Shown piece by piece: positions 47,277-64,000 of a DNA stretch of 64,000 nucleotides. The stretch's first letter is position 1. Every line of letters starts with the position of its first letter. Origin of the DNA: Alphaproteobacteria bacterium (lineage in GTDB: Bacteria > Pseudomonadota > Alphaproteobacteria > JANQMY01); contig JANQPL010000008.1 of the NCBI GenBank assembly GCA_028289425.1, positions 30,613 through 94,612 on the forward strand. Direction: 5' to 3'. Position numbers and translations under genes: made by a program. A model generated the notes under the pieces. The model was not told the origin of the DNA. It did not search any database and worked only from the letters and a program-made list of their open reading frames with translations.

Positions 47277-48320
47277 TTAGCCGGTTCCGATGCGCTTTAG
47301 GTCGTAGCCCTTCGCGGCGATGCGCTTCGTCCAATCCCTATTGTCAAGATACCAAGCGACCGTTGTCCGAAGGCCATCGGCGAAACTGGTCGTGGGCGTC
47401 CAGCCAAACCGGTCGCCCACCAGCGCGTTTGACATAGCGTACCGCATATCGTGTCCGGGCCGGTCTTTCACATAAGTAATGGCATCAGAGTACGTATCGT
47501 GTGCCGGCGCGAGCTCATCCAACAGACCGCACAGCTCGGTGACCGTATCGATGTTCTTGCGCTCATCACCGCCAGAGAAATTGTACACGCCCCCGTCTTC
47601 CCCAGACTTCACCACCCGTTCAAGGCCCATTGCCAAATCGTCCACATAGAGCCAATCCCGAATCTGTACGCCGCGGCCGTATACCGGCAACGGCTGACCG
47701 GCCAGGGCGCTTGAAATCATGTGCGGGATCAGCTTCTCCGGAAACTGCCTTGGTCCGTAGGTATTCGAGGCATGGACGACCGCCGTGGGCAGTCCATGGG
47801 TGACGCGGAAACTGCGGACGAGATGGTCGCCGGCGGCTTTGGAGGCCGCATAGGGGGAATTGGGCGCGTAGTTGCTTTGTTCCGTGAACAGACCATCCTC
47901 GATCGAACCATACACTTCGTCGGTCGACATTTGGACGAACAGGAATTTGCTCTGCTGATCGCTGGCAACGTTTCGCCAATACGCCAAACACTGAGCGAGC
48001 AGGGCGTAAACGGACATCACGTTTGTCTTGAGAAAAGGCTGTGCATCGTCGATCGAGCGATCTACGTGGCTTTCCGCCGCCAGGTTAAACACCACGTTCG
48101 GTTGATGCTCCGACAAAACCCTCTGAACAAGCGCGCCATCACCAATATCGCCGTGGACGAAAACATAATTGTCGGCCTTGGCAACGGACGAAACATTGGC
48201 CACATCACCGGCATAGGTGAGCGCGTCCAGGTTAACCACACGGTAGCCGCTGGCAACAAGACGCTCTACAAAATGCGATCCGATAAATCCGCACCCGCCG
48301 GTCAGCAGGATTGTTTTCAA
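47277..48320 (-). CDS. rfbB: dTDP-glucose 4,6-dehydratase
   Basis: 347 aa. KTILLTGGCGFIGSHFV, AAESHVDRS, YAASKAAGD (YxxxK). The TTG start overlaps the upstream stop (TTGA). Confidence 0.93.
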   Translation of the reverse strand: MKTILLTGGCGFIGSHFVERLVASGYRVVNLDALTYAGDVANVSSVAKADNYVFVHGDIGDGALVQRVLSEHQPNVVFNLAAESHVDRSIDDAQPFLKTNVMSVYALLAQCLAYWRNVASDQQSKFLFVQMSTDEVYGSIEDGLFTEQSNYAPNSPYAASKAAGDHLVRSFRVTHGLPTAVVHASNTYGPRQFPEKLIPHMISSALAGQPLPVYGRGVQIRDWLYVDDLAMGLERVVKSGEDGGVYNFSGGDERKNIDTVTELCGLLDELAPAHDTYSDAITYVKDRPGHDMRYAMSNALVGDRFGWTPTTSFADGLRTTVAWYLDNRDWTKRIAAKGYDLKRIGTG

Positions 48321-49702: not shown

Positions 49703-49715
49703 CGGTTACCGACAA

Positions 49716-51161
49716 TCAATGCTGCAACTGAGGAAGATCCACAGAGACAATCGATGCAAAGCGGGTCTTGAACAATGTGCCGTCGCGCGAATCAATCATA
49801 GTCTTTAACTCAGGATAGGCAAAGACGGCATCGAAGTCTTCATGAAATTCGTCCAGTGTCTGGCGCCGCCGAAGGATCGCAAGTTGAATGCAGGCGCGCA
49901 GTTTCGCAAACCCGGCGAGGCCGTTCCCTAGCGCCGCATCGAACGCCCGGATGGCACGTGAATTATCGCCCAGCGCAAAGCCATCCAAACCGTCTAAATA
50001 ATGAAACACACCCGGCATCAACTGTTCGACCCGTGGTGTCAAGGCCCGACGCCGCGCGGATGGGTCGGGAGAGAAAAAGCCAGTCAGATCCTCTGTAGCA
50101 CCTTTGACGTCGCTTTCGGGTTTTTCGATCGCGCTTTGAAGCGGGGACAGGTCCTCGTCAAGACCAAATTGCATTAGGCATCCCAAGCAATCCATGAGGC
50201 GCGATTCCATCCCCGCTTTGCCGGCCGATCGGGTAAACACCATTTCATAAGGAATGGTGTTGAAGAGGCCGGCCGGATAACGCCGGAACATGCGCATCTG
50301 CTGCAACGAAAGGCTCTTGGACAAGTATTGCGACGGCATCCGGACACCCGCCTTGCCGTGTGAATTGAACGACAAAAAGAGTCCGTCGGGGGACAATGTG
50401 CGGTCGATCCAATCTGTATACGCGTCGACTGCCTCGAGATCCATTTCTTGAAGACTGAAGGAATTCAGCACGATGTCGAATTGCGCCTTGATATTGCCGA
50501 CCGCACCCGGCAGCGCGCCAGCGATGACGCCTGGTCTGAGCGTTGAGATCTGGCCCGCTCCCATCTCGACAGCTTGGATCGGGCGGTCAAGAACCGCGGA
50601 TAAATAAGGGACCGACAGGCAAAGATTCTCTGGAAGGTCGACGATTGCATAATGCTCAACATCAAGGAGTTGATGGAGGAGATGAGCGGCCAAGCCCCAG
50701 CCGGCACCGATTTCCAAGATCCGAAGGGGCCTGCCGGCAAGACCCAGTTCGCGAGCAAGCGCGCCCACCCGCAGGGCCGTTACGGAATTTGTCCAGAAGG
50801 CGGCACTGCGCACGATGCCCGCGTGTTCAAACACGTAAGGCGCCCCGAGCGGGGATTCGTCGAGCTGCGCGACCTCCCGGGGATCCACACTTTGGCGATA
50901 GATTTCAAATGCCCGCGCCGCATGGGCCGCCTCTTTGTCTGCACCGCCTTGCCGTTCGTCCGCCATGCCATGGCCGAAATCAGCACGGCGAAATCCGACA
51001 AACTGATTGACATCCGGAAAATTCGACCGCTTGTCGAAGATGCGCCCCCAAAAGGAAGATGTGCGGCCAAAGACGGTTTTGGCGGAGTTGGCGCCATCGG
51101 CTTCAATCAAATCCCGAACCTGGGAAATCGCCGCTTCGAGGGAACTGAGCGATTGAGTCAT
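49716..51161 (-). CDS. SAM-methyltransferase-like protein with helical C-terminal region (MT2)
   Basis: LRILEIGAGWGLAAHLLHQLLDVEHYAIVDLPENL ... FDIVLNSFSLQEM. ATG at 51161 preferred over TTG at 51242. Specificity unknown. Confidence 0.6.
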   Translation of the reverse strand: MTQSLSSLEAAISQVRDLIEADGANSAKTVFGRTSSFWGRIFDKRSNFPDVNQFVGFRRADFGHGMADERQGGADKEAAHAARAFEIYRQSVDPREVAQLDESPLGAPYVFEHAGIVRSAAFWTNSVTALRVGALARELGLAGRPLRILEIGAGWGLAAHLLHQLLDVEHYAIVDLPENLCLSVPYLSAVLDRPIQAVEMGAGQISTLRPGVIAGALPGAVGNIKAQFDIVLNSFSLQEMDLEAVDAYTDWIDRTLSPDGLFLSFNSHGKAGVRMPSQYLSKSLSLQQMRMFRRYPAGLFNTIPYEMVFTRSAGKAGMESRLMDCLGCLMQFGLDEDLSPLQSAIEKPESDVKGATEDLTGFFSPDPSARRRALTPRVEQLMPGVFHYLDGLDGFALGDNSRAIRAFDAALGNGLAGFAKLRACIQLAILRRRQTLDEFHEDFDAVFAYPELKTMIDSRDGTLFKTRFASIVSVDLPQLQH

Positions 51162-51271
51162 GCTGCTGTGAACTTGCTTACGCCAAATTGTTGCGCGTTC
51201 TAATAGTGAAGTTTTGAGATTTCTTGGAGAACCAGTCGGCAAGTGCGCGACGACGATTGCTTAGCACTGCG

Positions 51272-52168
51272 TCATTGCCGAACTTGATCCGTCTTAGCGT
51301 TCGTTTTGGTATCGGCTTTGGTCCTTAGCCGCAATTCTGCACCAGGCACCATTGGGACAAACTTGTCGATCAGTGTCTCGCTTAGCTGGAAGTCATAATA
51401 ATAGTAGTTTGTGAGTGCGTATCGCTTTCCGTCACTTAGCGGGGCACCACGATGCACACCCGCTGTATTCACCAAGATCGCGGTGCCGGCTGTTGCCGTA
51501 AACGTTTTCTTCCTTAAAAACCCCTGAGCGACAAGGTCGTTCACACGGTCATCGTCCATCCTGCTCTCCGGCGGTCCCTCAAGGCGGTTTAGTCCCGCAT
51601 CCATAACCACGCGCCAGAACTTGTGACTGCCGACCAAATATTCGAATGGCCCGTTCTCGTAGGTCACATCACAGAGATATATTATTGCTTTGAACTGATA
51701 GGCGAATGCGTCGCGATGCCAGCCTTCGCCCGACCCAATGTTGCCCGCTTGCGATTCTATGCGCGCTCCCAGCGTCGCCAGATTGAAAAGTGCACCTGCA
51801 CCCAATGTTTCACCAACCGACCGTAAAAACCTGTCTTCGTGGAATTCGCGCAGCAACTTGCTTTGTGCTTCGACACCAAACATTCGTTGGTCAGCCCCTC
51901 GTGAGAAGTGGCGCACCGCATTTGGATACTCAGCAAGAAGACGATCAATCTCCCGCGTTCCGGCCTCACACTTCCGCGGTGGCCAATAATTCTTGATGAC
52001 AGCATATCCCACCGTACGCAGGTCGTTCAGCAGCGAAGACCGATTCGGTGCCGGAGGAGGAGGCGGGTCGCCTTCCTTATCTGATCCAACAGGCTGCCGT
52101 AAACTCGCATGAGAACGGTCGATGGCGCGCCAGTGCTTCGCCGCCGATATCGCCTTTGTCAACATCAT
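51272..52168 (-). CDS. PhyH-like Fe(II)/2-oxoglutarate dioxygenase
   Basis: 298 aa. Facial-triad-like GWHRDAF (HxD) and distal AGVHRGAP. N-terminal poly-Pro DPPPPPAP. Confidence 0.65.
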   Translation of the reverse strand: MMLTKAISAAKHWRAIDRSHASLRQPVGSDKEGDPPPPPAPNRSSLLNDLRTVGYAVIKNYWPPRKCEAGTREIDRLLAEYPNAVRHFSRGADQRMFGVEAQSKLLREFHEDRFLRSVGETLGAGALFNLATLGARIESQAGNIGSGEGWHRDAFAYQFKAIIYLCDVTYENGPFEYLVGSHKFWRVVMDAGLNRLEGPPESRMDDDRVNDLVAQGFLRKKTFTATAGTAILVNTAGVHRGAPLSDGKRYALTNYYYYDFQLSETLIDKFVPMVPGAELRLRTKADTKTNAKTDQVRQ

Positions 52169-52195
52169 TTTCCCGACGCCTTCAAACGAAGCATC

Positions 52196-52966
52196 TCATC
52201 CAATTCGCCGAAATGCGTAGAATGTAAACCAGGCTTCGCGCCATGCCCCGAATGCATCGACCGGGACGATATCTTGATGTGCCCCGCCGCCCTGCCAATT
52301 GTTCCGCCTTCCCAATATGTCGTAACCCGAACTAATTGTTTCAACGCTACCGGCATCCTCGAACAGTGAAGCAATACCAACATGTGAAAAACGGAAATAA
52401 TCGTCAGGAGACTGATGGTATCTTAAGGAAAACGGAACAATTATAACTCCGACGCCGCCCAACTGCAGAAGGTTGTAGATGTTCTTGGCCGCCTGCCACG
52501 GTTTTCTAAGATGCTCGAAGACATTGTTGGAGTAGGCCACTGCAACACTTTCTTTGTGAATAGGAATCGAGTCTTCAAACCGTTCGTCGCAAATATCCGC
52601 TTCAAAAATATTGCGTGAGGGTTCGCTATACATATCGATTCCCGCATATTCGAACTTGTTATCGAACAGTGTCCTATTTTGGCGGTACAGCTCTTCGCTG
52701 TAGTCGAAATTCCCCTTGTTTCCGAGCAAGTATGCCAGCTTTCCATCACCGCATCCTATCTCGACGAATTTTCCCGGGGGTGTGTTTTCGTCAAAAACAA
52801 TATCTCGCGCTTTAGCTTCTTTGTTGATGTCCGTGTTCACGGCATTGGACGTTGCCTCGAAATTGCCGAGCTGTCTGTGACGATCGAAGATGAGTCTGCC
52901 ATCAGGCAGACTGAGGGCAGCTTCATTAAGACGTTTATTTCCGTTCACCGTCGCGATGAATCGCAA
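52196..52966 (-). CDS. Class-I SAM-dependent methyltransferase (MT3)
   Basis: 256 aa. FVEIGCGDGKLAYLL ... VAVAYSNNVFEHLRKPWQAAKNIYNLLQLGGVGVI. TTG start, start uncertain. Confidence 0.72.
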   Translation of the reverse strand: MRFIATVNGNKRLNEAALSLPDGRLIFDRHRQLGNFEATSNAVNTDINKEAKARDIVFDENTPPGKFVEIGCGDGKLAYLLGNKGNFDYSEELYRQNRTLFDNKFEYAGIDMYSEPSRNIFEADICDERFEDSIPIHKESVAVAYSNNVFEHLRKPWQAAKNIYNLLQLGGVGVIIVPFSLRYHQSPDDYFRFSHVGIASLFEDAGSVETISSGYDILGRRNNWQGGGAHQDIVPVDAFGAWREAWFTFYAFRRIG

Positions 52967-53080
52967 AATTTGGAAAAAGTTGGCCAGTGAAATCAGAGTT
53001 GGCTCCCGTTCAAATCTCGGTGCTTGGGGTTCGGTGTATCACTTATCGTCGGCTTGACACGCAAATGGCCTGTCTCGGAG

Positions 53081-54091
53081 TTAGAGGCAACGTGTTGCTT
53101 CGTACATACGCATCGGATAGGCGCCGCACTCCAGTAGTTTTTCTCTCGAGCAGTTGAGGAGCCAGGGCTGTACTTGAACGGAAAAACCCACGCTTTCCAA
53201 TCTCTGTCCAAAATCCCACCCGTACTGTCTGACATGGCCGTCATGGGACTCATCCGAAACCAACCATTCGGCGGTTTCTTCTCGATGCGTTGCTTGCGGA
53301 ACAGACAAGTTGGCAACACCCCCCGGGACCAAAATACGAAACATCTCCCGCATCGCGGAAATGTCATCAAGTACATGCTCCAATACACGATGGCAGAGAA
53401 TCACATCGAATGACCGATCTGGTATCGGCAACTCGGTAATGTCGGCTGCTATATCCGCACCACTCCCCAGAGACGTCTCCATGACATGATAACTGCAATT
53501 GGCTTGCAACCATCCACGCGGCTCAGGCTCGGGCGCGATATGCAGCACTTTCTTTCCGCGGATGAGGCGATCATTTTGTTTGAGATAAAGCAGAAGGCTT
53601 GCGCCTCGAGACGGTTTGTTCCAGCTCAACGTGACATGATGCGCACCATACATCCGCTCTAGTTCTTGAGTTTGGTTGTTAAGTTCACCTGACCACCTTG
53701 GATGGTCCTTAAGCACCTGAGCCCGATCGGGCATTCCGTCCGTGAGATTGCTTATTGCAATGAGCTCGTCGACTCTGCTCGCAAGATCTGGTGCATCTTG
53801 CTTCAACTGGGTAAGAATCGACCGCGTGTAAGGCCCACGGGCCTCGCTACGCACTAACGGTACATAGGCATTAAAAAACCGGAGTAATGCGTCGGCGTTC
53901 TGCACTGTGGGCTGGAGCTCAAATGCCTTTAGTTCCGGCACCCTGGCAAGAAGTGCCAACGCATGCCGAAAAACAATGTTAGGTGAGTCGGAAGGAGGCG
54001 CGGCGTCCTCCTGTCTTGGAATCTCACTTGCGAAAAACTGTCTTTTGACAGCTCCTATCCGCCGCCTTAATGCTCTTACCAACCTAATCAC
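53081..54091 (-). CDS. Two-domain protein: N-terminal helical region plus C-terminal SAM methyltransferase (MT4)
   Basis: 336 aa, GTG start. C-terminus KVLHIAPEPEPRGWL ... FDVILCHRVLEHVLDDISAMREMFRILVPGGVANL. The roughly 170-aa N-terminal part is not recognised. Confidence 0.68.
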   Translation of the reverse strand: MIRLVRALRRRIGAVKRQFFASEIPRQEDAAPPSDSPNIVFRHALALLARVPELKAFELQPTVQNADALLRFFNAYVPLVRSEARGPYTRSILTQLKQDAPDLASRVDELIAISNLTDGMPDRAQVLKDHPRWSGELNNQTQELERMYGAHHVTLSWNKPSRGASLLLYLKQNDRLIRGKKVLHIAPEPEPRGWLQANCSYHVMETSLGSGADIAADITELPIPDRSFDVILCHRVLEHVLDDISAMREMFRILVPGGVANLSVPQATHREETAEWLVSDESHDGHVRQYGWDFGQRLESVGFSVQVQPWLLNCSREKLLECGAYPMRMYEATRCL

Positions 54092-54111
54092 GTGCGCTAG
54101 AAATACGTATC

Positions 54112-55293
54112 CTAGTTTCGGCCAATCAAACGAGAAATCATTGGGAAAATTTGGTGAGCGAGGCTGTGGTTCCTGTTCCGCTGAGCAGGAACCTCGCTCG
54201 CACCGATCTGCAATGCTTGCTCAATTCCGACCTCTGGGTCAGGCATCAAACTGATCGATTCGAGCATTTCATCCGAATTCGTAAGCAGAAATTCGCAAAA
54301 CGATGCAAGCGGAGTAGGCAATCGATTTCCACCCGTCGAGAGGCTGTGGTGGCGGCCTAGTCGAATATCAAGCCCGCTCGGGTTGATCGGTTTTGGTGAT
54401 AGGGTTCCGTCTGAAACCTGTGTGAGATTTGTGTCCAATCGCCTCGCCGATTCACCAGCAGAAAAGCAGCTGGCTACTCTCGGCCATTCATCGTCCTTTG
54501 TCTTGGTTTCTAAGGCGCGCAGGATCGCCTTAGGCATTTCTGAGCTGTCCTCCGCCGCAAACAAAAAGGGCTCACGATGAAACTCAAGAGGCAGGATGCT
54601 TGCAACAACCGAATTTGAGACAACGGGTATGCCGGTCGCCCATGCATAGGCGGCCGTTCGGCATCGGCGTTCCTCCGGCGCCGGATGAACAAAAACACGA
54701 GCGTGCCTATAGAAGTGGGATAGAGATTCCAAATCCAAGGGAAAAGGATAGTCCCATCCGATTGTCAGAAGTGTCACCCTCTGGCGTTCTTCCACAGTGA
54801 AAAGTGACTCGAAATGACTCCGCAAATCTGAGATGCCAGGTAGAACAACTTTATCCGGAGTCGGACAAATAAAGAGGACGCGCGGTTGCTTGCCCATATC
54901 GTAAACTGTGCGGATTGCCAAAAGGAACTCAGGGATCCCCTTAAATGCGACCGCTCTTCCTACGAACAGTACATCCCAAAACGGCTCTGCAGATTGGCCC
55001 TGTGAGAACCAGGAGGGCGCAAAATTGCAGGCATCCAACGGAATGTAAGGGAACTCTTTTCCGTTTCTCTCGATAAGGTCTCCCTCTCCCGCCATACTAA
55101 AATCATAAAGGGAGTCATAGCGAAAATCGTGATCGTGCCAATTATGGTGAAGCCCGATCAAAAACCGATCCCGCAGCCTCGTGATCAAATCGCGCACAGC
55201 TCCCGAATCGCCAATTATGTGATCCCGCTCGGGGGTCGTAAAAACCACACATCCCTTGCCGTCTTTAGAGGGTGGTTTCAATAGACACGCCAT
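54112..55293 (-). CDS. Putative GT4-like glycosyltransferase
   Basis: 393 aa. WDVLFVGRAVAFKGIPEFLLAIRTVYDMGKQPRVLFICP ... ARVFVHPAPEERRCRTAAYAWATGIPVVSN. Confidence 0.55.
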   Translation of the reverse strand: MACLLKPPSKDGKGCVVFTTPERDHIIGDSGAVRDLITRLRDRFLIGLHHNWHDHDFRYDSLYDFSMAGEGDLIERNGKEFPYIPLDACNFAPSWFSQGQSAEPFWDVLFVGRAVAFKGIPEFLLAIRTVYDMGKQPRVLFICPTPDKVVLPGISDLRSHFESLFTVEERQRVTLLTIGWDYPFPLDLESLSHFYRHARVFVHPAPEERRCRTAAYAWATGIPVVSNSVVASILPLEFHREPFLFAAEDSSEMPKAILRALETKTKDDEWPRVASCFSAGESARRLDTNLTQVSDGTLSPKPINPSGLDIRLGRHHSLSTGGNRLPTPLASFCEFLLTNSDEMLESISLMPDPEVGIEQALQIGASEVPAQRNRNHSLAHQIFPMISRLIGRN

Positions 55294-55341
55294 TTTGAGA
55301 AAATCTTATCGCCTAACTAACAAGGAATATCTTTGAGCAAG

Positions 55342-56181
55342 TCACCGCCGCATTACAACTGACTTTAGCCGGTTCAGAATTCCTGGCTCTTGACGCTGAC
55401 GGATTTGGGGATTGAGATCTGAATACTGTGGAACTTCTCCAAACGGAAGGAAGAAATTGACCGCCATTTCCGACGCTGCCCCACCGTGCATGTTTTCGTA
55501 ATAGTCTTGTAGCTTAATATCGACGCTGGCTACTTCTCTTCGTTTCTTGGCTGCGAAGACCAAAATCGCCTCGCTGGCCATTTCAACCACGTACTTCCTG
55601 CCATGAGCCCTGTACATATTGTCCGCCGCTGACATCGCATAAGGTGGGCGGCTGAGAACAAATAGAGCCGCGGTCAATACTTCAAAGCCGGCTTGCGTGT
55701 AGTAAGACTTGTATAGATCTGGGCTTACCTGCCAAAAGCCGTGGTCAAGAAACCCGTTACTCGGTGTGGCGTGTATGACAACGCCGCCAATTCGTGTGAG
55801 CTTTGTAAGGTTTCGCAAAGCGGTCGGCATGTCGAACACGTGCTCTAACGTACCGCTATCATATATCAAATCGAATTGCCCCGAGACTTTGTCTGCCATA
55901 TTCGGATCATTCAGATCCGCTGTGATGTCGGCCCCTTCGTAATCAGACACATCAAGCATCGAAGCTGAGGGAAAACCGAGTGTTTCAAAAAACTGTGGTG
56001 CAGTTTCGAAACTTCTTGGACGAGTGTTCCGCGCAAGCTCGGTATATCTTTCGGCATGCGCATGAAATATTTCGCTGGTGAACCCCATGGTGGGAACACC
56101 CAGAGTTAAGCAGCTTTCAGTTGCATCGCATTCCTGAACCGCACGCGCAATGACAAGCGCGTCATAAATCAGCATTCCCAT
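55342..56181 (-). CDS. Methyltransferase-like protein (MT5, divergent)
   Basis: 279 aa. CLTLGVPTMGF ... FDLIYDSGTLEHVFDMPTALRNLTKLTRIGGVVIH. A class-I fold is implied by motifs post-I to III, but the glycine loop is atypical. Confidence 0.55.
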   Translation of the reverse strand: MGMLIYDALVIARAVQECDATESCLTLGVPTMGFTSEIFHAHAERYTELARNTRPRSFETAPQFFETLGFPSASMLDVSDYEGADITADLNDPNMADKVSGQFDLIYDSGTLEHVFDMPTALRNLTKLTRIGGVVIHATPSNGFLDHGFWQVSPDLYKSYYTQAGFEVLTAALFVLSRPPYAMSAADNMYRAHGRKYVVEMASEAILVFAAKKRREVASVDIKLQDYYENMHGGAASEMAVNFFLPFGEVPQYSDLNPQIRQRQEPGILNRLKSVVMRR

Positions 56182-56229
56182 TTAGGGCTCGCCAATTCTG
56201 TTGTCGATGTGAAACAGAGATTCAAAGAA

Positions 56230-56865
56230 TCACAACTGCACCACATGAACTTGATCCTTATCACTCTGCACTTGATGGATGTCGACGGATTTACATCCGA
56301 TGTGATGTAGAAGTAGGTCGTAGTGGTCGGTCGAGAACGACCGACGTAGGTAAGGTTCCTGCTTCTGCCCGGGACCAACGTCCAACATTCGCAACACGGC
56401 CGTGTCGTGTCGGTCGGCGGGGGGTTCGAAGAAGCGGATCATGATGCGGGGCGCCATGTTTCGCGCCGCCGCCAGCGAGGCACCAGGCGATTCCAAGGTC
56501 TCAAGCACGTGGGAAAACAACACAATGTCCGCCGGCTCCCCCTGCAGGTCGGGATCTTGGATGTCCCCTTCCACAAAAACCGTGTCGTCACTGCCCGCAT
56601 AGCGCGCCCGCGCCGCATTGAGCAGTGAGGTGGAAAAATCCCACCCGGTATATTTGAGCGTCAATCCCTGGTCCCGGAAAAACTGGCACAGATGACCGTT
56701 GCCACACCCGAAATCCGCCAAGTGAAAGCGCGTATCGCCGAACAATTCCTTCAGTATACTGCCCATCAACAATTTCGACCGCTCCGACGGGTGGCCATAA
56801 CCGTCGAGATAGATCTTGGCGGTATCGTCATCGAAGGCGGACCAGCTGTTCTTTGCAATTGACAT
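56230..56865 (-). CDS. Class-I SAM-dependent methyltransferase (MT6)
   Basis: 211 aa. FHLADFGCGNGHLCQFF ... ADIVLFSHVLETLESP. Confidence 0.8.
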   Translation of the reverse strand: MSIAKNSWSAFDDDTAKIYLDGYGHPSERSKLLMGSILKELFGDTRFHLADFGCGNGHLCQFFRDQGLTLKYTGWDFSTSLLNAARARYAGSDDTVFVEGDIQDPDLQGEPADIVLFSHVLETLESPGASLAAARNMAPRIMIRFFEPPADRHDTAVLRMLDVGPGQKQEPYLRRSFSTDHYDLLLHHIGCKSVDIHQVQSDKDQVHVVQL

Positions 56866-56886
56866 GGACAGTTCAGTTCAAGTGCA

Positions 56887-57825
56887 TCACGCCGATGCCG
56901 CCTTCTCAAACACCAAAATTGAGTCCAAATGGCCGATTGACATGTCTTCGGGCAAATGAATGCATTGGGTCTGACGAAACGCAGGCGCAAGTTGTCGCAG
57001 CAAGGCGCTGTAGTTTCGAACCCAATAGGTGGTGTTGGGAAACGGGTCTATCTTGCCTTCGAAACTCGCCCCTTCGTCCGTGTCGTCAAAGGGCTCCACC
57101 AGCACCAGAAAGCGCTTCGACACCCGCACCAGCTCGCGCAAAACCTGCTCGATTTTTTCTGGGCCAATGCACACCAGCAAGCCGCTTACCAGCACCACGT
57201 CAAAGCGCGCATCCGGGAATGGCACATCATCGGCGCCCGCTACATGCAGCGCGTGGGGCGATTGAAAACTCTCGGCCATCAGCTTCCGCCCGTCTTCGAC
57301 CACATGGGGCGAGATGTCCACGCCCGCCAGCCAGTCGTAGCGACGTATGATGTCCAACGCGCGCAAATTGACACCGCAATGCGCGCCCACCTCCAGCACG
57401 GTCGTCCCGTCCAGCGCCGCAACCGTATGCGCCAGTTTCTGCCGCATCGGATGGTTGAGCCCATCCCAATATGACTGCACATAGGCCGGATTGTCGGCCT
57501 CGCGCGTCCGCCAAAAATCTTCAGAGAAGGCGCCGGTGCGCGGCGGCCCTTGCTCGGATGCCGCGCTCTTTTTCGCGGGAGCCGGAGCTGACTGGGTCGC
57601 CGTCCCAACCGGCACCAATTTCCGCAAGCGCAGATAGCCCGCCTGCCCAAGGATCGATTGGGCGAGCCGGACAACTCTTCTACGCATGCCGGATGGAGCA
57701 ACCGCATCAGGCGCGTTGCGCGCCAACGGCGTGTCCCAGGCATGAACTTGTTTAGGTGGCCCCGAAGGGGGCGTCGCGACCGCGCGCGTTGAAACCATTA
57801 CATCGTCCCGTTGACCAATGGTCAT
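56887..57825 (-). CDS. Class-I SAM-dependent methyltransferase with Pro/Ala-rich N-terminal region (MT7)
   Basis: 312 aa. TTVLEVGAHCGVNLRAL ... FDVVLVSGLLVCIGPEKIEQVLRELVRVSKRFLVLVEP. ATGA overlap with the upstream gene. Confidence 0.75.
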   Translation of the reverse strand: MTIGQRDDVMVSTRAVATPPSGPPKQVHAWDTPLARNAPDAVAPSGMRRRVVRLAQSILGQAGYLRLRKLVPVGTATQSAPAPAKKSAASEQGPPRTGAFSEDFWRTREADNPAYVQSYWDGLNHPMRQKLAHTVAALDGTTVLEVGAHCGVNLRALDIIRRYDWLAGVDISPHVVEDGRKLMAESFQSPHALHVAGADDVPFPDARFDVVLVSGLLVCIGPEKIEQVLRELVRVSKRFLVLVEPFDDTDEGASFEGKIDPFPNTTYWVRNYSALLRQLAPAFRQTQCIHLPEDMSIGHLDSILVFEKAASA

Positions 57826-59378
57826 GAGACGTACGCCCCTTTGTTTTCGAAGTTTCGCGAATGCATAAGGGCCGCCGCTTCGCCGGAATTTTCGATGACG
57901 GCAGTGATATTGCGCGTCGCCTGGGCTACGCCGGCCGAAAAGAATCCGGATACCGCAGGTCCATTCTCATTGCGAATGCGTTGCGCTTCGCCACCGACAA
58001 GGCGCTCCAACGCCTCTCGCGCCGCATCATAATCGTGCACCTCTACACCCAATCCCATTTGCTCAAGATCCGGATGGTGGCGCGCGATCCCCGTGACATT
58101 GACGATCAACGGTACGGCACCACGCACCACCGCCTCTATCAGTGTCGTCGAAAATATGGCCACTGCCACCAAAGATTCATCCAGCACGTCCGCAAGCGGC
58201 CGCTCGGTCGCCGGGCTCATCTCCACATTCGACAAGGATGCCAGGTGGGCCCGTTCTTCGTCGCGAATAGGAATTGCCGGGTGTTCCCGCACCAAAATCT
58301 TCCGGTCCGAAAATCGCTCCGCGGTCCAGGACACCAGGCGTAACATGTTCTGCCAAGCTTCTTCCGTGATCAAAACGGAGCCGTGCTGCAAAAAGAATGA
58401 AATGGCCGACTTTTCGGAACGGTCAGCACCGCCACCCGGTCCGATCACGTGATTTCCCGTCACGAAAAATGCCTGGGCCGGATTGTGTAGCTCAAGCATC
58501 CGTGCGAATTGCGCCCCCCAAACGCAGAATGCGTCGAAACGCATCTCCCGAAACCCGTTGTGAACAACCGGCGACCATCCCTGCTGTATGCAGACGGTTC
58601 GAATGCCGAGCGACCGTGCGGCCAGATTGACAATTTCGTCGATCGGATGCGTGCCTTCGGCCATCACGATCGTGGAGATGTCGTGACGCGACAACACATC
58701 CCGCATCACGTCGAATTGTGCCGCAAGGCTTGGCCATTCAGTCAATTGCCGACGCACCGTTCGCGTCAGCGTCCGGGCATCATCGAAATCATAGGTGACG
58801 ACCTGCCTGCCGTTTTCGGCAAGCCGGTCTTTGAGCGGAGATTTGGCCGCGGCAATCCACAGTGCCGGCGCAGAAAGCTGGCGTTCGATCGGGCTCAGGT
58901 AGTCGGCAAACCGTCCCGTAATCGCAAGGAAGGCAACCCGTCCCTTCACGGAGGGCTTCTGACTCGCAGACGGTTTAGTCGTTCCGGTACCGCTCCAATC
59001 GACAACGGAAGCGATATTTCGCCTGAGCGATTTCCTAAGACGTCCGGACCAACCGGTCCGGTCCCCCGTCATGTAAGGCAATAACATTGTCGCCTTTGGT
59101 GAAAGCGAGGTTCCTTCATCGGCTGCCGGTCGCGCGCCGGTCTCCATATGTTTCCGACAAACCTCTCTGAAAGCGCCGTCATTGACCAATCCGAAATAAA
59201 GGTCGATTGCTATGGCCCGCCCGAAATCCGCACCGCGATAGGACAGCCCGCCGATACTCTCTTTTCGTTTGTCCGAAACGTATCGTTCGACGGCATCGAT
59301 CAGCCGCGCCTGATAAGCGGCGGCTGATGGATCGACACATCCATCGGTCGACGGGTCAGTTGAGACGGCGCTCTGCAT
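57822..59378 (-). CDS. Unassigned 518-aa protein, possible GT-B transferase using a CMP-activated sugar (TagF / KpsS / sialyltransferase-like HP motif)
   Basis: C-terminal half: ISTIVMAEGTHPIDEIVNLAARSLGIRTVCIQQGW ... KILVREHPAIP ... VAVAIFSTTLIEAVVRGAVPLIV. Assignment is by motif resemblance and context only. Confidence 0.4.
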   Translation of the reverse strand: MQSAVSTDPSTDGCVDPSAAAYQARLIDAVERYVSDKRKESIGGLSYRGADFGRAIAIDLYFGLVNDGAFREVCRKHMETGARPAADEGTSLSPKATMLLPYMTGDRTGWSGRLRKSLRRNIASVVDWSGTGTTKPSASQKPSVKGRVAFLAITGRFADYLSPIERQLSAPALWIAAAKSPLKDRLAENGRQVVTYDFDDARTLTRTVRRQLTEWPSLAAQFDVMRDVLSRHDISTIVMAEGTHPIDEIVNLAARSLGIRTVCIQQGWSPVVHNGFREMRFDAFCVWGAQFARMLELHNPAQAFFVTGNHVIGPGGGADRSEKSAISFFLQHGSVLITEEAWQNMLRLVSWTAERFSDRKILVREHPAIPIRDEERAHLASLSNVEMSPATERPLADVLDESLVAVAIFSTTLIEAVVRGAVPLIVNVTGIARHHPDLEQMGLGVEVHDYDAAREALERLVGGEAQRIRNENGPAVSGFFSAGVAQATRNITAVIENSGEAAALMHSRNFENKGAYVS

Positions 59379-60336
59379 ACAGATCTTTTTCGACCATCTC
59401 TTCGATCATATCCTGAAACGGCTTTCCCGATGACCAACCTACTTGCCGATGTATCCGGCCGGCATCGCCGCATAACGGTACGGCCTCAACCGGGCGATAA
59501 AACCTCTTGTCTTGGCCAACACATTGTTCGGGATCGAGTTTCAAGGCATTGCACGCAATGGTGACCAAATCCCGCACGGAATGCATCCGTCCGGTGGCGA
59601 TGACGAAATCGCCGGGTTGGTCATGGTCAAGAATGCGCTGCATCGCTTCCACATAGTCCGGCGCGTAGCCCCAATCCCGTCTGGCTTCAAGGTTTCCAAG
59701 CGCAATATTGCTTTGTAGGCCCAACGACACCCGTGCCAGCCCCCGCGTCACCTTGCGGGACAGAAAATAGGGCTCCCGCCGCGGAGATTCATGGTTATAG
59801 AGAATACCGGTACAGGCAAAGCTGCCGAATTTCGTACGATGGCGCTCCACCAAATCGGTCGCCGCAAGTTTTGCGAAGCCATACATGGATCTTGGCTGGC
59901 GCGCCGTTTGCTCGTCTTGAGGCGCCTTACTGGGTGCTCCGAAAATCTCGGATGTTCCGGCGAAAAACAACCGTGCCCGCGCCCGGTCTTTTATTGCCTC
60001 CAACAACGCCTTTGTGCTGCCGAAGATGGTTTTGAACACGCCGGCATTGCCGCCAACGTTACTGTCCACCCGTGTTGGCCCTCCCAGATGGTAGACCAGA
60101 TCCGGCTCTACTTTTCGGCACACGCCGAAAACAGCGTCACTGTCGGACAAGTCCACATCATAACGGTGAACCCGCGAATCGGAAAACAAGGCGCGCACAT
60201 AAGACGGCAACACTTGATCCGCGGACGGTTGACTTGGCCGCACGATGCAATGAATTTCGTGGTCATTGGCCAACAAAGACTCGGCCAGGTAGGACCCGTC
60301 CTGCCCCGTTACGCCAGTCAACAAAACGCGCGCCAT
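59356..60336 (-). CDS. GDP-mannose 4,6-dehydratase-family SDR
   Basis: 326 aa. VLLTGVTGQDGSYLAE, YGFAKLAA (YxxxK), ILYNHESPRR, RRDWGYAPDYVEAM. Confidence 0.85.
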   Translation of the reverse strand: MARVLLTGVTGQDGSYLAESLLANDHEIHCIVRPSQPSADQVLPSYVRALFSDSRVHRYDVDLSDSDAVFGVCRKVEPDLVYHLGGPTRVDSNVGGNAGVFKTIFGSTKALLEAIKDRARARLFFAGTSEIFGAPSKAPQDEQTARQPRSMYGFAKLAATDLVERHRTKFGSFACTGILYNHESPRREPYFLSRKVTRGLARVSLGLQSNIALGNLEARRDWGYAPDYVEAMQRILDHDQPGDFVIATGRMHSVRDLVTIACNALKLDPEQCVGQDKRFYRPVEAVPLCGDAGRIHRQVGWSSGKPFQDMIEEMVEKDLYAERRLN

Positions 60337-60345
60337 GGGCGTGCC

Positions 60346-62595
60346 CTAGAGCAGTCCTTCCAGCCGATCCAATGCAAGCCAAAACCCGTCCCCGCCATTC
60401 TTGTGGCCTTGCCAGATTTCCGGAATGAATGGGACATTTGGGCAAAGCTCGGCGAGCCGGCGCCCCAGCGCTTCAAAATCGATCTCCCCTTCGCCGATTT
60501 GCAACCCCTCGCTGTCCACGCCCGCGGCATCCACAATATGAAGATGACCGGTCACCGGGCCAAGAATGTCCACATAATCCTCAAAGCGCCGGCCCCGATG
60601 GTTGGCCGCCAGTTTGGAGTGGGAGACGTCGAAACAAATCTTCAGGCCGCTTGACCGCGAAAACTCAGCCGTGTCCTCAGGTTCCACAAACAGATTGCAG
60701 TAAAGCTGCCCGCCCAAATACCAAGGAAAGGGCGGCAGGGTTTGGGGCAAGATGTCGACACCCTCCGTATCCACGTGCGACAGGGAATCGGAAACGCGAT
60801 CGTAAAGCTCCGGCAACCGCTCGGCGGCCACCGGCTCATCCCGCGACATACCGCCTAGGCTCGCAATTAGCGGGACCTTCGATACGTTGGGAAACCACTT
60901 TTTGAGCCGTCGCGTGACCTCGATCGTACGTTGTAAATGTGCAATCGAAACTTCTCTATACTGACGGTCGTCCGCGGCCAGATTCAAAATATGGTCGTTT
61001 TCGAACAGATCCGGGCTGTGTACCACCAACCCCGTTGGCATCTCCGCATCGAAAAACTTGCCGGGGTCGGCTTCCAGATCTTTGTAGGAGAAATGAAACT
61101 CCACAAAGTCCATACTCAAGCCTTGATGAATCGCTTTCCAATCGTGATAACGCACCGGCACGCCCCAAGGGCGGTTGAATTTGTAGTTTCGTGCTTTTGA
61201 CACGTTTGTAAGAAGGTCGGTCGCAAAGAAGAAATCCCCTTTCGCGATATCCCTGTTGGCCGGCCGGCCCACCAATTCCCGAATGCGATTGGGCTGAAGG
61301 CCCGTTCCGGGGCTCTGCACCGCAATCATCGACTGGTCGATCATCCGACCCGACTTGATATCCTCGGCAGCGACAAGGCTTTTCGCGAGGACTTCCCGGT
61401 TCATCTGTTCGCCTACAGATGGTTCGCGCGGAGTTGCCCCGCCCAGCGCTTCCTCTACATTTCGAATGGCGGCCACCATTTCCGTGAACTGGTCTGGCTC
61501 TAGGCTTACCTTGTGATCGTTGCCCACCATGTTGCGATCTAAGGTGATGTGTTTTTCGACGATCTTCGCGCCCCGAGCCACCGCGGCAATGGGCACCGCA
61601 TATCCCCGCTCGTGCCCGGAATAGCCGACAATGGCCCCCGTTACCCGAGACAAGCGATCCAAATACCGCAGATGGACGTCCTTAAAGGGTGTGGGATATG
61701 TGGAATTGCAATGCAGAAGGGCAAACTGGCCGCCGGCGCGCCGCAGCTCAGTCACCGTTTCCAGGATTTCCGTCTCGTTAGACATGCCGGTCGACACGAT
61801 GAGAGGTTTGCCGGTTGCCGTCACGGCGCGGATCAGCTGATGGTTTGTCATATCGGCCGAAGCGATTTTGTAGGCCGGCACCCCCCATGCGGCCAAGAAG
61901 GCCACGCTTCTCAGATCCCAGGGCGTGCAAAGCGGCGTGATGCCACGGGTTTGTGCGTAGTCCAACACCTCGCCCATTTGCTCGGTGCTGAAATTTGCCC
62001 GCTGCAGTACCTCTAACGTGTACTGAGTACCTAGATCCGCGGCTTCGTGGTCGGGCCGCGAACTGCCCTTGTAAAGCGAACTCAAATCACGCAACTGGAA
62101 CTTGACGCTATCTGCTTGGGCTTCGACGGCACAATCGATCAATTCCTTGGCAACCGACACGCTGCCATTATGGTTCACGCCGATTTCCGCAATGATATAA
62201 CAGGGCTCGTTCTCGCCAATCCTGCGGCCGTCGATTTCGAAGCCACCCTTGCTCCGTTCCAACGCCACGCCGGTGACGCGGCCTTCCGCGTCCACTAGCG
62301 GCACGAACGATACGCGTTCGCTGAAGATGTCGGCGAGCGTTTCCATGTTCGATGCATCCGGCGCGGTCGTCACATCGCGATTGCACGCCACGACCACCGA
62401 TTCGCTCACATCGATTTCTTCGACCTTGGATATCCACCGCCGAAAATCGCCGTCCGTCAGCGCGCCATCCAGCCGCCCGTTATTGTCGAGGCAAAGGACG
62501 AAGCCACTTTTGTTTCTCGAGATCTGACCCAGCGCCTCCGCGATCGACGCAGTGCTATTGATCAAATACTTCTTGATATCCCGTTCGATGATCAA
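60346..62595 (-). CDS. Fusion protein: CBS pair + NeuB-type nonulosonate (sialic-acid-like) synthase + SAF domain + xylose-isomerase-like TIM barrel
   Basis: 749 aa. Residues 1-115 are CBS-like. PCYIIAEIGVNHNGS...LIVSTGMS...LHCNSTYPTP...GYSGHERG is NeuB. Residues ~400-460 are SAF (IAVQSPGTGLQPNRIRELVGRPANRDIAKGDFF). Residues ~470-749 are TIM barrel (GHLHIVDAAGVDSEGLQIGEGEIDFEALGRRL...PFIPEIW). The TTG start overlaps the neuA stop (TTGA). Confidence 0.88.
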   Translation of the reverse strand: MIIERDIKKYLINSTASIAEALGQISRNKSGFVLCLDNNGRLDGALTDGDFRRWISKVEEIDVSESVVVACNRDVTTAPDASNMETLADIFSERVSFVPLVDAEGRVTGVALERSKGGFEIDGRRIGENEPCYIIAEIGVNHNGSVSVAKELIDCAVEAQADSVKFQLRDLSSLYKGSSRPDHEAADLGTQYTLEVLQRANFSTEQMGEVLDYAQTRGITPLCTPWDLRSVAFLAAWGVPAYKIASADMTNHQLIRAVTATGKPLIVSTGMSNETEILETVTELRRAGGQFALLHCNSTYPTPFKDVHLRYLDRLSRVTGAIVGYSGHERGYAVPIAAVARGAKIVEKHITLDRNMVGNDHKVSLEPDQFTEMVAAIRNVEEALGGATPREPSVGEQMNREVLAKSLVAAEDIKSGRMIDQSMIAVQSPGTGLQPNRIRELVGRPANRDIAKGDFFFATDLLTNVSKARNYKFNRPWGVPVRYHDWKAIHQGLSMDFVEFHFSYKDLEADPGKFFDAEMPTGLVVHSPDLFENDHILNLAADDRQYREVSIAHLQRTIEVTRRLKKWFPNVSKVPLIASLGGMSRDEPVAAERLPELYDRVSDSLSHVDTEGVDILPQTLPPFPWYLGGQLYCNLFVEPEDTAEFSRSSGLKICFDVSHSKLAANHRGRRFEDYVDILGPVTGHLHIVDAAGVDSEGLQIGEGEIDFEALGRRLAELCPNVPFIPEIWQGHKNGGDGFWLALDRLEGLL

Positions 62596-63317
62596 TGGGC
62601 CCTCATCAAGGTCATGGCCGCTTCCGCCAATGCCAGATCGTCCGGCGTGTCAATGTCTACACTTTCGAGAGCGGACATTTCGTAAATCACGATCTTCCCG
62701 CCAACCCGGCAGTTTTCCCCACGCAGAAGCGTGCAACGGGTCAAGTAAATCGACCCGTTTTCTTCAAACAACCGATCTTCGTCGGCCACGTCCTGTCGGC
62801 GCGGGCGATTTCTGAAATCATAATGGGCGCGTGCGTCGCCCGGCCTGTTCCACAAGAACGGATGAATTTCCTGCGCGGAAACCACACTGTCGGCGTCGTG
62901 CTTTCGCCGCAGATCAATGGCCGCATCGATGGCACCGGGCTTGCGGATCGGGCATGTGGGCTGGAGCAACAGGATATCATCCGCTTCGTATCCGTCCTGC
63001 GCCAATGTTTCAACCGCGTGCACCATTGCGGACTCGGTCGTGGCGGTATCGCCCGCAAGCTCCGCCGGACGCATGAACGGCACATCGGCGCCGAATTCTT
63101 TCGCCGCTTCCGCGATTTTCGGACTGTCTGTCGAAACGATCGTGCGGTCCACTTGACGGCTGGCAAGCGACTGCTCGATGGACCAAGCAATCAGCGGTTT
63201 GCCGCCCAGCGGCGCCAGGTTTTTGTCGGGGATGGATTTAGACCCGCCGCGCGCCGGAATAATGGCAAGGATCGTCACGTCAGGTGCCGCCCTTGGCCAA
63301 TTCCAATTGACCCGCAT
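62592..63317 (-). CDS. neuA: CMP-nonulosonate (N-acylneuraminate) cytidylyltransferase
   Basis: ILAIIPARGGSKSIPDKNLAPLGGKPLIAWSIEQS ... LLLQPTCPIR. The ATG at 63317 overlaps wzt by 38 nt. A GTG at 63278 (VTILAIIPARGG) is an equally good or better start. Confidence 0.9.
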   Translation of the reverse strand: MRVNWNWPRAAPDVTILAIIPARGGSKSIPDKNLAPLGGKPLIAWSIEQSLASRQVDRTIVSTDSPKIAEAAKEFGADVPFMRPAELAGDTATTESAMVHAVETLAQDGYEADDILLLQPTCPIRKPGAIDAAIDLRRKHDADSVVSAQEIHPFLWNRPGDARAHYDFRNRPRRQDVADEDRLFEENGSIYLTRCTLLRGENCRVGGKIVIYEMSALESVDIDTPDDLALAEAAMTLMRAH

Positions 63318-64000
63318 CCGTATCTTGGTCCATCTGCGCGGTTGTCCAAGATCCCGGAAAGATAATGTGGCCGACCCGTTCTTTCTTGTAACTGCGGAAG
63401 GCGGTGTTTTCAGTCAGCTCCTCGATGGCAAATTGCAGAGCGCTGGGCACTTCGATCAGTATATCCGTCAGTGTACCAATCAAGACGGAAATGGAATAGC
63501 TGCCCCCTTTCAGGAAGCGCGCAGGAATGCGCATTTGCGCGTGATACCGGCCTGCTTTTCGATTCGCGATGGGCTCCACATGGCCATCCGTGTCGAACGA
63601 CGTAAAAACCTCGATCATGTTGCGCGACACGACCATAACCGACTGCATCGTGTCGATGTCTTCATGCAGTTCATATTCCATATTGACGACAATTTCGTCT
63701 TTGAGGTCGAAGATCTGTTCGTCCCGGCCGTCGCTATGTGTGGTCCAAACGCGGTTTATGGAGATATTGTTCTTGTGCCATCCGCGCCCATCCCCATGGA
63801 TAAGATCTTCCGAAATGAGCTTGGCGTAAGACCCGACCACGTCGCCCACTTCGCCGGCATCAAGGATTTCGCCTTTGTCCAACAGGATCGCCGATGTGCA
63901 AAGTTCGCTAATGGATCCGATATTGTGACTTACAAACAGGACCGTGCGACCGCTTTTCATCAGATCTCTGATTTTTTCCATGCTTTTCTTACGAAAGGCG
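63280..64000 (-). CDS. Polysaccharide ABC-exporter ATP-binding protein (Wzt/TagH type), 5' part outside window, with C-terminal extra domain
   Basis: The reading frame stays open to base 64000 (...AFRKKSMEKIRDLMKSGRTVLFVSHNIGSISELCTSAILLDKGEI = end of the ABC ATPase with H-loop). About 170 further residues follow (VWTTHSDGRDEQIFDLKDEIVVNMEYELHEDIDT...RFLKGGSYSISVLIG), consistent with a Wzt-type beta-sandwich C-domain. Confidence 0.82.
   Translation of the reverse strand, partial: AFRKKSMEKIRDLMKSGRTVLFVSHNIGSISELCTSAILLDKGEILDAGEVGDVVGSYAKLISEDLIHGDGRGWHKNNISINRVWTTHSDGRDEQIFDLKDEIVVNMEYELHEDIDTMQSVMVVSRNMIEVFTSFDTDGHVEPIANRKAGRYHAQMRIPARFLKGGSYSISVLIGTLTDILIEVPSALQFAIEELTENTAFRSYKKERVGHIIFPGSWTTAQMDQDTDAGQLELAKGGT

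Follow-up and report, generated by a model that had tools for sequence, protein, structure and literature searches.

The closest described enzymes to the protein analysed here, Neisseria meningitidis NeuB/SiaC (PDB 1xuu, 1xuz) and Campylobacter jejuni PseI (8h2c), are synthases of about 349 amino acids (aa) that consist of a NeuB barrel and a SAF domain; they contain neither a CBS pair nor a second barrel, and Arg314 is present in their SAF domain. Only this two-domain NeuB+SAF enzyme was described in a large-scale phylogeny of nonulosonate synthases (PMC8208679), and the known routes to 2-keto-3-deoxynononic acid (Kdn) use mannose-6-phosphate and need a phosphatase (PMC6200933). We analysed a 64,000-nucleotide stretch of DNA, here called the window, from an alphaproteobacterium (assembly GCA_028289425.1, contig JANQPL010000008.1), in which a gene at 60346..62595 encodes a protein of 749 aa and four domains. 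Besides the NeuB and SAF domains shared with the enzymes above, it contains an N-terminal CBS pair and a C-terminal xylose-isomerase-like TIM barrel, and Ser428 is found in place of Arg314. With a probability of roughly 0.6, we take this protein to be a CBS-regulated bifunctional synthase of a 3-deoxy-2-ulosonic (sialic-acid-like) sugar, in which the barrel would carry out a step adjoining the condensation. All features of this gene and of the surrounding polysaccharide cluster given below lie on the minus strand.

A four-domain gene and its relatives

The earlier note on this DNA had described a single uninterrupted open reading frame (ORF) of four modules, and this was found to be present as described. 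The gene starts with TTG and ends with a TAG stop at 60346-60348, all signature strings quoted in the note were found at their places in the translation, and the module boundaries given there agreed with Pfam, the KpsF/GutQ models, the PDB matches, AlphaFold and Foldseek. All four Pfam domains (CBS, NeuB, SAF and AP_endonuc_2) scored above their gathering cut-offs. The upstream cytidylyltransferase gene ends in a TGA stop that overlaps the TTG start codon (aTTGA; 4-bp overlap), and the downstream GMD-like short-chain dehydrogenase/reductase (SDR) gene begins 9 nt past the TAG stop; the synthase gene is therefore placed inside an operon. In alignments, homologues were shown to begin at the same 'MIIER' as the window protein.

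Separate pairs of NeuB-SAF and TIM genes exist in other organisms and the gene is broken by frameshifts in some long-read assemblies, as might be expected if the long ORF were an assembly or sequencing artefact that had fused two genes. However, when a public coral-metagenome run was assembled independently, one contig of 46.8 kb covered 60300-62650 with 0 mismatches and 0 gaps at a word depth of approximately 30x, which also settled the concern about read support raised in the note. Furthermore, the SAF-TIM junction was gap-free across 26 aligned full-length homologues, and ungapped in more than 240 full-length homologues of 745–770 aa among the matches listed. The artefact is refuted by these two lines of evidence, and its remaining probability is negligible.

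The note had set the fusion apart from the canonical two-domain enzymes and had called for a check of its prevalence. It is not rare: when one genome per species was scanned, the same ~750-aa protein turned up in at least 586 species-level genomes. The carriers included metagenome-assembled genomes (MAGs) labelled Planctomycetota, Alpha- and Gammaproteobacteria, many Actinomycetota and many Cyanobacteria, as well as Chloroflexota, Verrucomicrobiota, Bacteroidota, Fibrobacteria, Chlorobium, a Bacillus and Leptospiraceae. In a collection of 5.8 billion proteins, 120 full-length relatives (745–770 aa) were among the matches listed for each of two queries, under names such as 'N-acetylneuraminate synthase family protein', 'TIM barrel protein' and 'sialic acid synthase SpsE/sugar phosphate isomerase/epimerase'. 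When the barrel alone was used in an exhaustive profile search, 1288 clusters (50% identity) were found, and 329 of these had E ≤ 1e-30. The window gene is not a unique invention; it belongs, as an ordinary member, to a variant of the sialic-acid synthase family that is very large and visible in databases. Among the genome matches listed, the closest to the synthase was a 2.1-kb contig, 98% identical, from a MAG labelled 'Phycisphaerales bacterium'; set against the photosynthesis gene cluster of the window (see below), whose DNA stems from a coral metagenome, this points either to an unreliable bin label or to a planctomycete-like organism with bch genes.

The relatives were divided into three architectures: CBS-NeuB-SAF-TIM proteins of ~750 aa as in the window (the 750-aa class), NeuB-SAF-TIM proteins of ~620–650 aa without CBS according to a Pfam check (the 630-aa class; 65 of 80 metagenome loci), and a NeuB-SAF gene of canonical size (344–349 aa) followed by a gene for a barrel of 273–282 aa, with a 4-bp overlap or a short spacer between the two. 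Genuine split pairs of the last type were seen only in the exhaustive search of representatives and not in the first TIM-only search. In every locus long enough to show neighbours, the barrel was found fused to or directly 3′ of NeuB-SAF, and no other setting is known for this barrel clade. This constant linkage, split genes included, is strong guilt-by-association evidence for a shared pathway of NeuB and the barrel. Three apparently free-living barrels (P0129, P0124 and P0181) were shown to be parts of fused genes broken by a frameshift or a truncation, and NeuB fragments lie directly before them.

The NeuB, SAF and CBS domains

The NeuB catalytic barrel (aa 127–395; 61411..62217) was matched by Pfam NeuB over aa 152–386 with 266.9 bits (cut-off 22.1, E 2e-79), and the SAF/antifreeze-like domain (aa 405–461; 61213..61383) by Pfam SAF over its whole length with 37.8 bits (cut-off 21, E 3e-9). 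Alignments were made to 1xuu, 4ipi and 8h2c, with E-values of ~3e-51 for N. meningitidis NeuB and ~3e-49 for C. jejuni PseI. Among the 12 positions that bind phosphoenolpyruvate (PEP) or metal or are catalytic in N. meningitidis NeuB, the window protein was shown to keep E137, K165, Q167, K243, S246, Y300, S326, H328, E347, H349 and D360 (NeuB E25, K53, Q55, K129, S132, Y186, S213, H215, E234, H236 and D247, respectively), the sole non-identical residue being D248 in place of E134. As judged from these residues, the NeuB active site is predicted to be competent, without Arg314.

Arg314 of the SAF domain reaches into the active site and is essential in N. meningitidis NeuB. In the window protein its position is taken by Ser428 (61312-61314), the aligned motif being 'VKRPG' in NeuB, 'SVRPS' in PseI and 'VQSPG' here. 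Across the family, this position was Ser in 58 of 63 proteins of the 750-aa class, Gly in 50 of 70 proteins of the 630-aa class, and Arg in none; the proteins in PDB entries 4ipi and 4ipj are substituted at this very residue. Besides, the protein scored below the cut-offs of both equivalog models, with 327.2 bits compared to 399.65 for TIGR03569 (NeuB_NnaB) and 249.2 bits compared to 340.25 for TIGR03586 (PseI). Because of the replaced arginine and these two scores, the product is probably neither N-acetylneuraminic nor pseudaminic acid. Since both characterised Arg-containing enzymes use 2-acetamido sugars, an aldose without a 2-acetamido group, giving a Kdn-type or similar product, may reasonably be proposed as the substrate, although this is unproven.

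The same data bear on a simpler explanation, namely that the protein is a plain N-acetylneuraminate (or pseudaminate or legionaminate) synthase with the extra domains as regulatory or structural passengers. NeuB_NnaB is the best NCBIfam match, the catalytic residues are kept at 30–35% local similarity to N. meningitidis NeuB, and a polysialyltransferase-family gene adjoins the synthase in cyanobacterial loci. However, this explanation does not account for scores below both equivalog cut-offs or for Ser or Gly at the Arg314 position across the family, and no NeuC, pseudaminate or legionaminate precursor genes are conserved; PseB/C/H/G genes were not recurrent among the neighbours in the genome loci and the 630-aa-class loci. 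Nor would a passenger be expected to keep approximately 25 barrel residues, a His/Asp/Glu cluster included, invariant across phyla, a degree of conservation which argues that the barrel is catalytic rather than passive. We consider a plain synthase very improbable.

At the N-terminus (aa 1–115; 62251..62595), Pfam CBS detected one repeat at aa 12–56 (35.9 bits, cut-off 24, E 1e-8), but the TIGR00393 KpsF and GutQ models spanned aa 11–110 and thus both repeats, and CBS-pair structures (PDB 4o9k, 3fna and 3fhm) matched the N-terminal 110 aa. The N-terminus is therefore regarded as a complete CBS pair (Bateman module), over which the full-length AlphaFold model was also confident (aa 1–115). It was most like the CBS pair of the KpsF/GutQ arabinose-5-phosphate isomerases. 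The earlier note had proposed regulation by adenylate or S-adenosylmethionine (SAM); given the likeness to these sugar-phosphate isomerases, sensing of a sugar-nucleotide end product appears at least as plausible, and the CBS pair would most plausibly serve feedback by a nucleotide or a CMP-sugar. The structure 4o9k presumably contains bound CMP-Kdo, and a targeted literature search returned no relevant report of CMP-Kdo binding by the CBS pairs of arabinose-5-phosphate isomerases. The note had also held that CBS domains of nonulosonate pathways are known on nucleotidyltransferases (PtmE type) and not on the synthase; in the sequence databases, however, they are common on a NeuB-type synthase. 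In the published literature, targeted full-text searches found no paper describing a NeuB-CBS fusion, nor one describing a fusion of NeuB with a xylose-isomerase-like barrel.

The C-terminal barrel and its putative metal site

The SAF domain is joined to the barrel by a conserved linker (aa 462–476; 61168..61212) that contains the invariant residues R469 and R475 and is missing from stand-alone TIM relatives. The barrel itself (aa 477–749; 60349..61167) was assigned by Pfam, AlphaFold, Foldseek, hhalign and MAFFT. Pfam AP_endonuc_2 (PF01261) matched aa 496–730 with 80.8 bits (cut-off 31.1, E 1.7e-22), which bears out the fold proposed in the earlier note. An AlphaFold model of the barrel made with 41 sequences showed eight beta-alpha units with a mean predicted local distance difference test score (pLDDT) of 94.6 and a predicted template modelling score (pTM) of 0.93. 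With this model, Foldseek returned 171 PDB matches at E ≤ 1e-3, and all those listed were from the xylose-isomerase-like superfamily: ketose 3-epimerases, UlaE, MbnB, endonuclease IV and xylose isomerase matched with template modelling (TM) scores of 0.57–0.67 at 11–18% identity. When compared by sequence profile, the barrel matched MJ1311, a protein of unknown function (E 2e-9), and, more weakly, endonuclease IV (E 1.4e-3); the one other protein reached was a putative sugar isomerase, and none of the characterised isomerases came up in these searches. The invariant residues included E499, H501, H526, D656, H659, H684, H686, D689, E696, E726 and H731 as putative metal ligands or catalytic residues. 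As modelled, the barrel is a well-folded domain with a conserved site rich in His, Asp and Glu.

The site was mapped onto endonuclease IV of Escherichia coli (Nfo) by hhalign and MAFFT, in alignments of low probability (48% in hhalign) that make the residue mapping provisional. H526, D656, H659 and H686 corresponded to Nfo H69, D179, H182 and H216, respectively, and E726 to Nfo E261 by eye only, since the automatic alignments placed Nfo E261 in a gap. In stand-alone barrels and in the 630-aa class, 'HPGG' and 'LEN' motifs supply the equivalents of Nfo H109 and E145, so that the series His/His/Glu/Asp/His/His is found at the positions of Nfo H69/H109/E145/D179/H182/H216. The CBS-bearing class, in contrast, showed Ser, Asn or Thr at the H109 position and an invariant Gln at the E145 position, which in the window protein are S579 (60859-60861) and Q618 (60742-60744). 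One intermediate protein contained a CBS pair together with the His/Glu pair. This covariation suggests that one metal site was lost or re-tuned at approximately the time when the CBS pair was acquired.

Compared to the nine-ligand trinuclear zinc site of endonuclease IV, the window barrel appears to keep the equivalents of H69, D179, H182 and H216, and by eye only that of E261. Compared to the canonical Glu-Asp-His-Glu tetrad on strands 5–8, it reads Gln618-Asp656-His686-Glu726, and of the two glutamates of the ketose 3-epimerases and UlaE it has only E726, with Gln618 at the strand-5 position; an hhalign alignment to Escherichia coli UlaE covered 51 columns at 12% probability, which is too weak for residue mapping. 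As aligned here, the site appears to contain more His than a four-ligand epimerase site and to be incomplete as an endonuclease IV site.

These comparisons bear directly on the role that the earlier note had offered for the barrel, an isomerase, epimerase or dehydratase step. In its most developed form, which is the main rival to the function proposed below, the barrel would act before condensation as a sugar isomerase or 2-epimerase that converts a common ketose or gluco sugar (or its phosphate) into a manno-type aldose and so replaces a supply of the NeuC or KdsD type. The small-molecule enzymes of PF01261 are for the most part isomerases, epimerases or dehydratases, and ketose 3-epimerases, UlaE and xylose isomerase headed the Foldseek matches. 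The Asp-x-x-His motif (D656/H659) together with H686 and E726 fits the general metal site of this superfamily, the clusters have no conserved NeuC-type gene, and the JGI annotation makes the same guess. On the other hand, the strand-5 Glu that is both ligand and catalytic base in ketose 3-epimerases is replaced by the invariant Gln618 throughout the class, the additional invariant residues H501, H526, H684 and H731 are not accounted for, a separate SIS_2 sugar-phosphate isomerase found in some loci would be redundant, and the profiles reached endonuclease IV, MJ1311 and a single unnamed putative sugar isomerase. The role suggested in the note is not favoured by the site or by the nearest sequence relatives, and we regard this rival as slightly less probable than the function proposed below.

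Gene neighbourhoods, proposed route and comparison with known systems

For the analysis of neighbourhoods, ORFs were called and clustered in 80 genome loci, 39 of which were well-flanked (at least 4 kb on both sides). A CTP_transf_3 cytidylyltransferase gene was the only tightly linked partner, being present in most loci of the 630-aa class and in 26 of the 39 well-flanked loci; in the latter it nearly always directly precedes the synthase gene in the same orientation, 0–3 bp away, as it does in the window. In the window, this gene (PseF/NeuA/KdsB-like; 62592..63317) is translationally coupled to the synthase gene. Many minimal loci contained only the cytidylyltransferase and synthase genes, and the fused synthase appears to need no other partner. 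Among the neighbours in the genome loci, neither NeuC nor an aminotransferase, N-acetyltransferase or HAD phosphatase was recurrent. Frequent neighbours were Wzm/Wzt ABC exporters, methyltransferases, GT2 and GT4 glycosyltransferases and pyruvyl transferases; in addition, transferases of the CMP-nonulosonate type adjoined the module, namely members of the polysialyltransferase family PF07388 (E 4e-28), MptE-like/DUF115 proteins and, in the 630-aa class, Capsule_synth (KpsC/S-like) proteins.

The gene that follows the synthase in the window encodes a GMD-like extended SDR (59356..60336), and together with similar genes it raises a further alternative, ranked third, in which the barrel tailors the ulosonic acid after condensation by epimerisation, dehydration or isomerisation next to a keto group, possibly with the SDR or GFO-type oxidoreductases that many clusters contain. 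Pairs of an oxidoreductase and a xylose-isomerase-like barrel are common in sugar chemistry (IolG/IolE), a 3-keto-glucal hydratase (8ro4) was among the Foldseek matches, and the operon of the 630-aa class has a conserved GFO/IDH/MocA oxidoreductase and a conserved PtmA-like SDR. However, the oxidoreductases do not occur in all loci. The first three neighbourhoods had pointed to the GMD-like SDR as an obligatory third partner, but it was found in only 6 of the 39 well-flanked loci and is rejected as such, being an accessory gene, and many loci are minimal. Moreover, by our reasoning a 3-deoxy-2-ulosonate without an added keto group would offer enolisation little target. Tailoring after condensation is accordingly held to be improbable.

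Since no precursor-supply enzyme or phosphatase is conserved in the loci and free aldoses are scarce in the cytoplasm, we favour the logic of the Kdn route (PMC6200933), where PEP and a sugar phosphate yield an ulosonate phosphate that subsequently loses its phosphate. The barrel would be a metalloenzyme for the step next to condensation. In the version that we put forward, as a tentative one at somewhat less than even odds, the barrel is a built-in phosphatase. NeuB would condense PEP and a sugar phosphate, for example mannose-6-phosphate, and the terminal phosphate would then be taken off by the endonuclease-IV-like barrel in place of the separate HAD phosphatase of the Kdn and animal pathways. 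The product would be activated to a CMP-sugar by the upstream cytidylyltransferase, as its translational coupling suggests, and may end up in a methylated surface polysaccharide for which a Wzm/Wzt ABC transporter serves as exporter. If the KpsF/GutQ enzymes are a guide, the CBS pair would sense a nucleotide or the CMP-sugar and tune the flux. Synthase and cytidylyltransferase would in this way form a self-sufficient two-gene route from a common metabolite. The KpsF/GutQ-type CBS pair, the SIS_2 genes present in five loci and the affinity of the barrel sequence to a phosphoesterase lend weak additional support to the phosphatase.

Several points weigh against this proposal. The trinuclear phosphoesterase site is not intact in the window barrel, because the positions of Nfo H109 and E145 are taken by Ser579 and Gln618 and Nfo D229 and H231 fall in a gap and have no counterpart. 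The best Foldseek matches were ketose 3-epimerases and UlaE, though all matches were equally remote, and to our knowledge no sugar-phosphate phosphatase has the xylose-isomerase-like fold; a housekeeping phosphatase encoded elsewhere may do the work instead. The full-length AlphaFold model (pLDDT 85.7, pTM 0.52) showed good domains in an undefined arrangement, so that substrate channelling is unsupported. Approximately one third of the well-flanked loci had no cytidylyltransferase gene nearby, the Kdn-type product rests on the loss of a single arginine, and the members of the family are biochemically uncharacterised.

Tentatively, and again at odds below even, the NeuB-linked barrel can be proposed as a new type of enzyme in a two-gene, CMP-Kdn-like route, either the first sugar-phosphate phosphatase of its fold or a new aldose-generating isomerase. 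If true, a route independent of nucleotide sugars would be present in hundreds to thousands of lineages, among them cyanobacteria, actinobacteria, planctomycete-like MAGs and alphaproteobacteria, and the correlated His-to-Ser and Glu-to-Gln replacements of the CBS class would mark a re-tuned metal site under allosteric control. The function of the barrel, once worked out, would be a new biosynthetic step, the blanket annotation 'N-acetylneuraminate synthase' on thousands of genes would need correcting, and a compact two-enzyme route to CMP-activated nonulosonates might become available for glycoengineering. The sequence itself is unsurprising; it is a clean, testable lead to an undescribed step in nonulosonate biosynthesis.

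Some relatives were found in settings of their own. In five cyanobacterial loci, a PF07388 alpha-2,8-polysialyltransferase-family gene lies directly downstream and Wzm/Wzt upstream, an arrangement from which a polysialic-acid-like homopolymer may be suspected in Anabaena, Nodularia, Trichormus and Leptothermofonsia. The five loci with a SIS_2 gene encode a GmhA-like sugar-phosphate isomerase next to the synthase/cytidylyltransferase pair, and the substrate of that enzyme may reveal the aldose phosphate used. Eight metagenome loci of the 630-aa class, and others besides, showed a highly conserved operon with genes for a GFO/IDH/MocA oxidoreductase, a bifunctional sulfate adenylyltransferase/adenylylsulfate (APS) kinase for PAPS synthesis, a PtmA-like SDR, the cytidylyltransferase, the synthase, a Capsule_synth (KpsC/S-like) protein, a methyltransferase, an acyl carrier protein (ACP), an aminoacyl-ACP ligase, a GNAT protein and sulfotransferases; this gene content implies a putative sulfated, aminoacylated ulosonate glycoconjugate. 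Unusual ORFs included a Wzy_C-cytidylyltransferase fusion of 734 aa in Aquihabitans sp. G128 (locus L001, 6012-8216), a synthase ORF of 1005 aa by a simple ORF call (locus L051, 8608-11625) and a 653-aa ORF matching the cytidylyltransferase model (locus L077).

At 63280..63981, the window encodes the C-terminal part of a Wzt-type ABC-exporter ATPase, in which Pfam found a Wzt_C carbohydrate-binding domain; the gene probably runs past the window end. Downstream of the SDR gene, a 518-aa protein (57822..59378) is a candidate transferase with only weak matches to surface-carbohydrate and BFO_1060 glycosyltransferase models; it showed no significant similarity to the Capsule_synth neighbour family m2 or to the neighbour family c29 and is rejected as a KpsC/S-like transferase. 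At least seven SAM-methyltransferase genes and a PhyH-family dioxygenase gene (51272-52168) are present at 46394-57825, and GT1-family proteins are also encoded in the surrounding 20 kb. The genes for a DegT/DnrJ aminotransferase (44248-45372), an RmlA-like NTP transferase (45427-46359), a methyltransferase (46394-47218) and a second GMD-like SDR (47277-48320) probably form a second sugar-nucleotide branch (44248-48320) for the supply of a nucleoside-diphosphate-activated amino-deoxyhexose. By its gene content, the surrounding 20 kb would represent an O-antigen-like cluster for an ABC-exported, heavily methylated polysaccharide, and the density of methyltransferase genes together with the PhyH-family dioxygenase and Wzt_C fits a methyl-capped or heavily O-methylated glycan. 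No PF07388 gene was found among the window ORFs scanned (44248-63981).

The polysaccharide cluster adjoins a complete bacteriochlorophyll photosynthesis gene cluster (15755-43762). The latter contains genes for a BchD-like protein, an ALA-synthase-like aminotransferase, PuhE (DUF3623), an AcsF-like rubrerythrin protein, LhaA/PucC, BchM, BchL, BchH, BchB, BchN, BchF, a B12-binding AerR/PpaA-like protein, a PpsR-like regulator (PAS+HTH_8), BchG (UbiA), a second PucC, a BchP-like reductase, a cytochrome c and an ADH_N protein.

In Streptomyces, clusters for Kdn-containing teichulosonic acids include a neuE/neuA/neuB operon (SCO4879-4881; PMC3479208, PMC13011467). Among the matches listed for an actinobacterial query of the fused family, Nocardioides, Phycicoccus, Janibacter and Microbacterium were found, and Streptomyces was absent. 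Mass-spectrometry surveys detected Kdn/Neu-type sugars in many environmental bacteria (PMC8157484), and no report linking these sugars to the fused family was found. The fused family is widespread and lies in surface-polysaccharide clusters, and could be part of the explanation for them. Sialic-acid-like sugars influence how hosts, phages and predators perceive bacteria.

Compared to known systems, each part of the window protein has a recognisable counterpart. The barrel gave its best structural matches with ketose 3-epimerases, UlaE and xylose isomerase (2zvr, 3cqi, 4xsl and 1muw; Foldseek probability 1.0, TM 0.6–0.67) and has a generic Asp/His/Glu metal site in common with them, but identity was 11–16%, one of the two catalytic or ligand Glu residues is replaced by Gln and additional invariant His residues are present. 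With endonuclease IV (1xp3, 3aam) and MJ1311 (3wqo) it shares the fold and the motifs H(526), 'xILNLA', D-x-x-H and H-x-x-D; the relatives without CBS keep the equivalents of H109 and E145, whereas the window class has Ser579 and Gln618, and the context of the window gene does not suggest a DNA-binding role. The CBS pair is most similar to that of KpsF/GutQ/KdsD, which consist of a SIS domain and a CBS pair and, like the window protein, are placed in CMP-ulosonate pathways for ABC-exported surface polymers; in KpsF, the CBS pair follows the SIS isomerase domain, whereas here it precedes a PEP-condensing synthase. As in the polysialic acid clusters of E. coli K1 and N. meningitidis, genes for the synthase, the cytidylyltransferase, a polysialyltransferase-family protein and an ABC exporter are co-located in the cyanobacterial relatives, although those clusters have NeuC, and the loci of the family have no NeuC, a Wzm/Wzt-type exporter and a synthase with extra domains. 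The Kdn pathway of Bacteroides thetaiotaomicron, Prymnesium parvum and humans consists of a Kdn-9-phosphate synthase, a HAD phosphatase and a CMP-Kdn synthetase. Its phosphatase is a separate HAD enzyme; in the loci of the fused family, HAD genes are not conserved, and the synthase is fused to a xylose-isomerase-like barrel instead. Otherwise, this pathway combines a NeuB-type synthase with a cytidylyltransferase, starts from a central sugar phosphate and does without enzymes for nucleotide-sugar precursors, which is the logic proposed here for the window protein as well.

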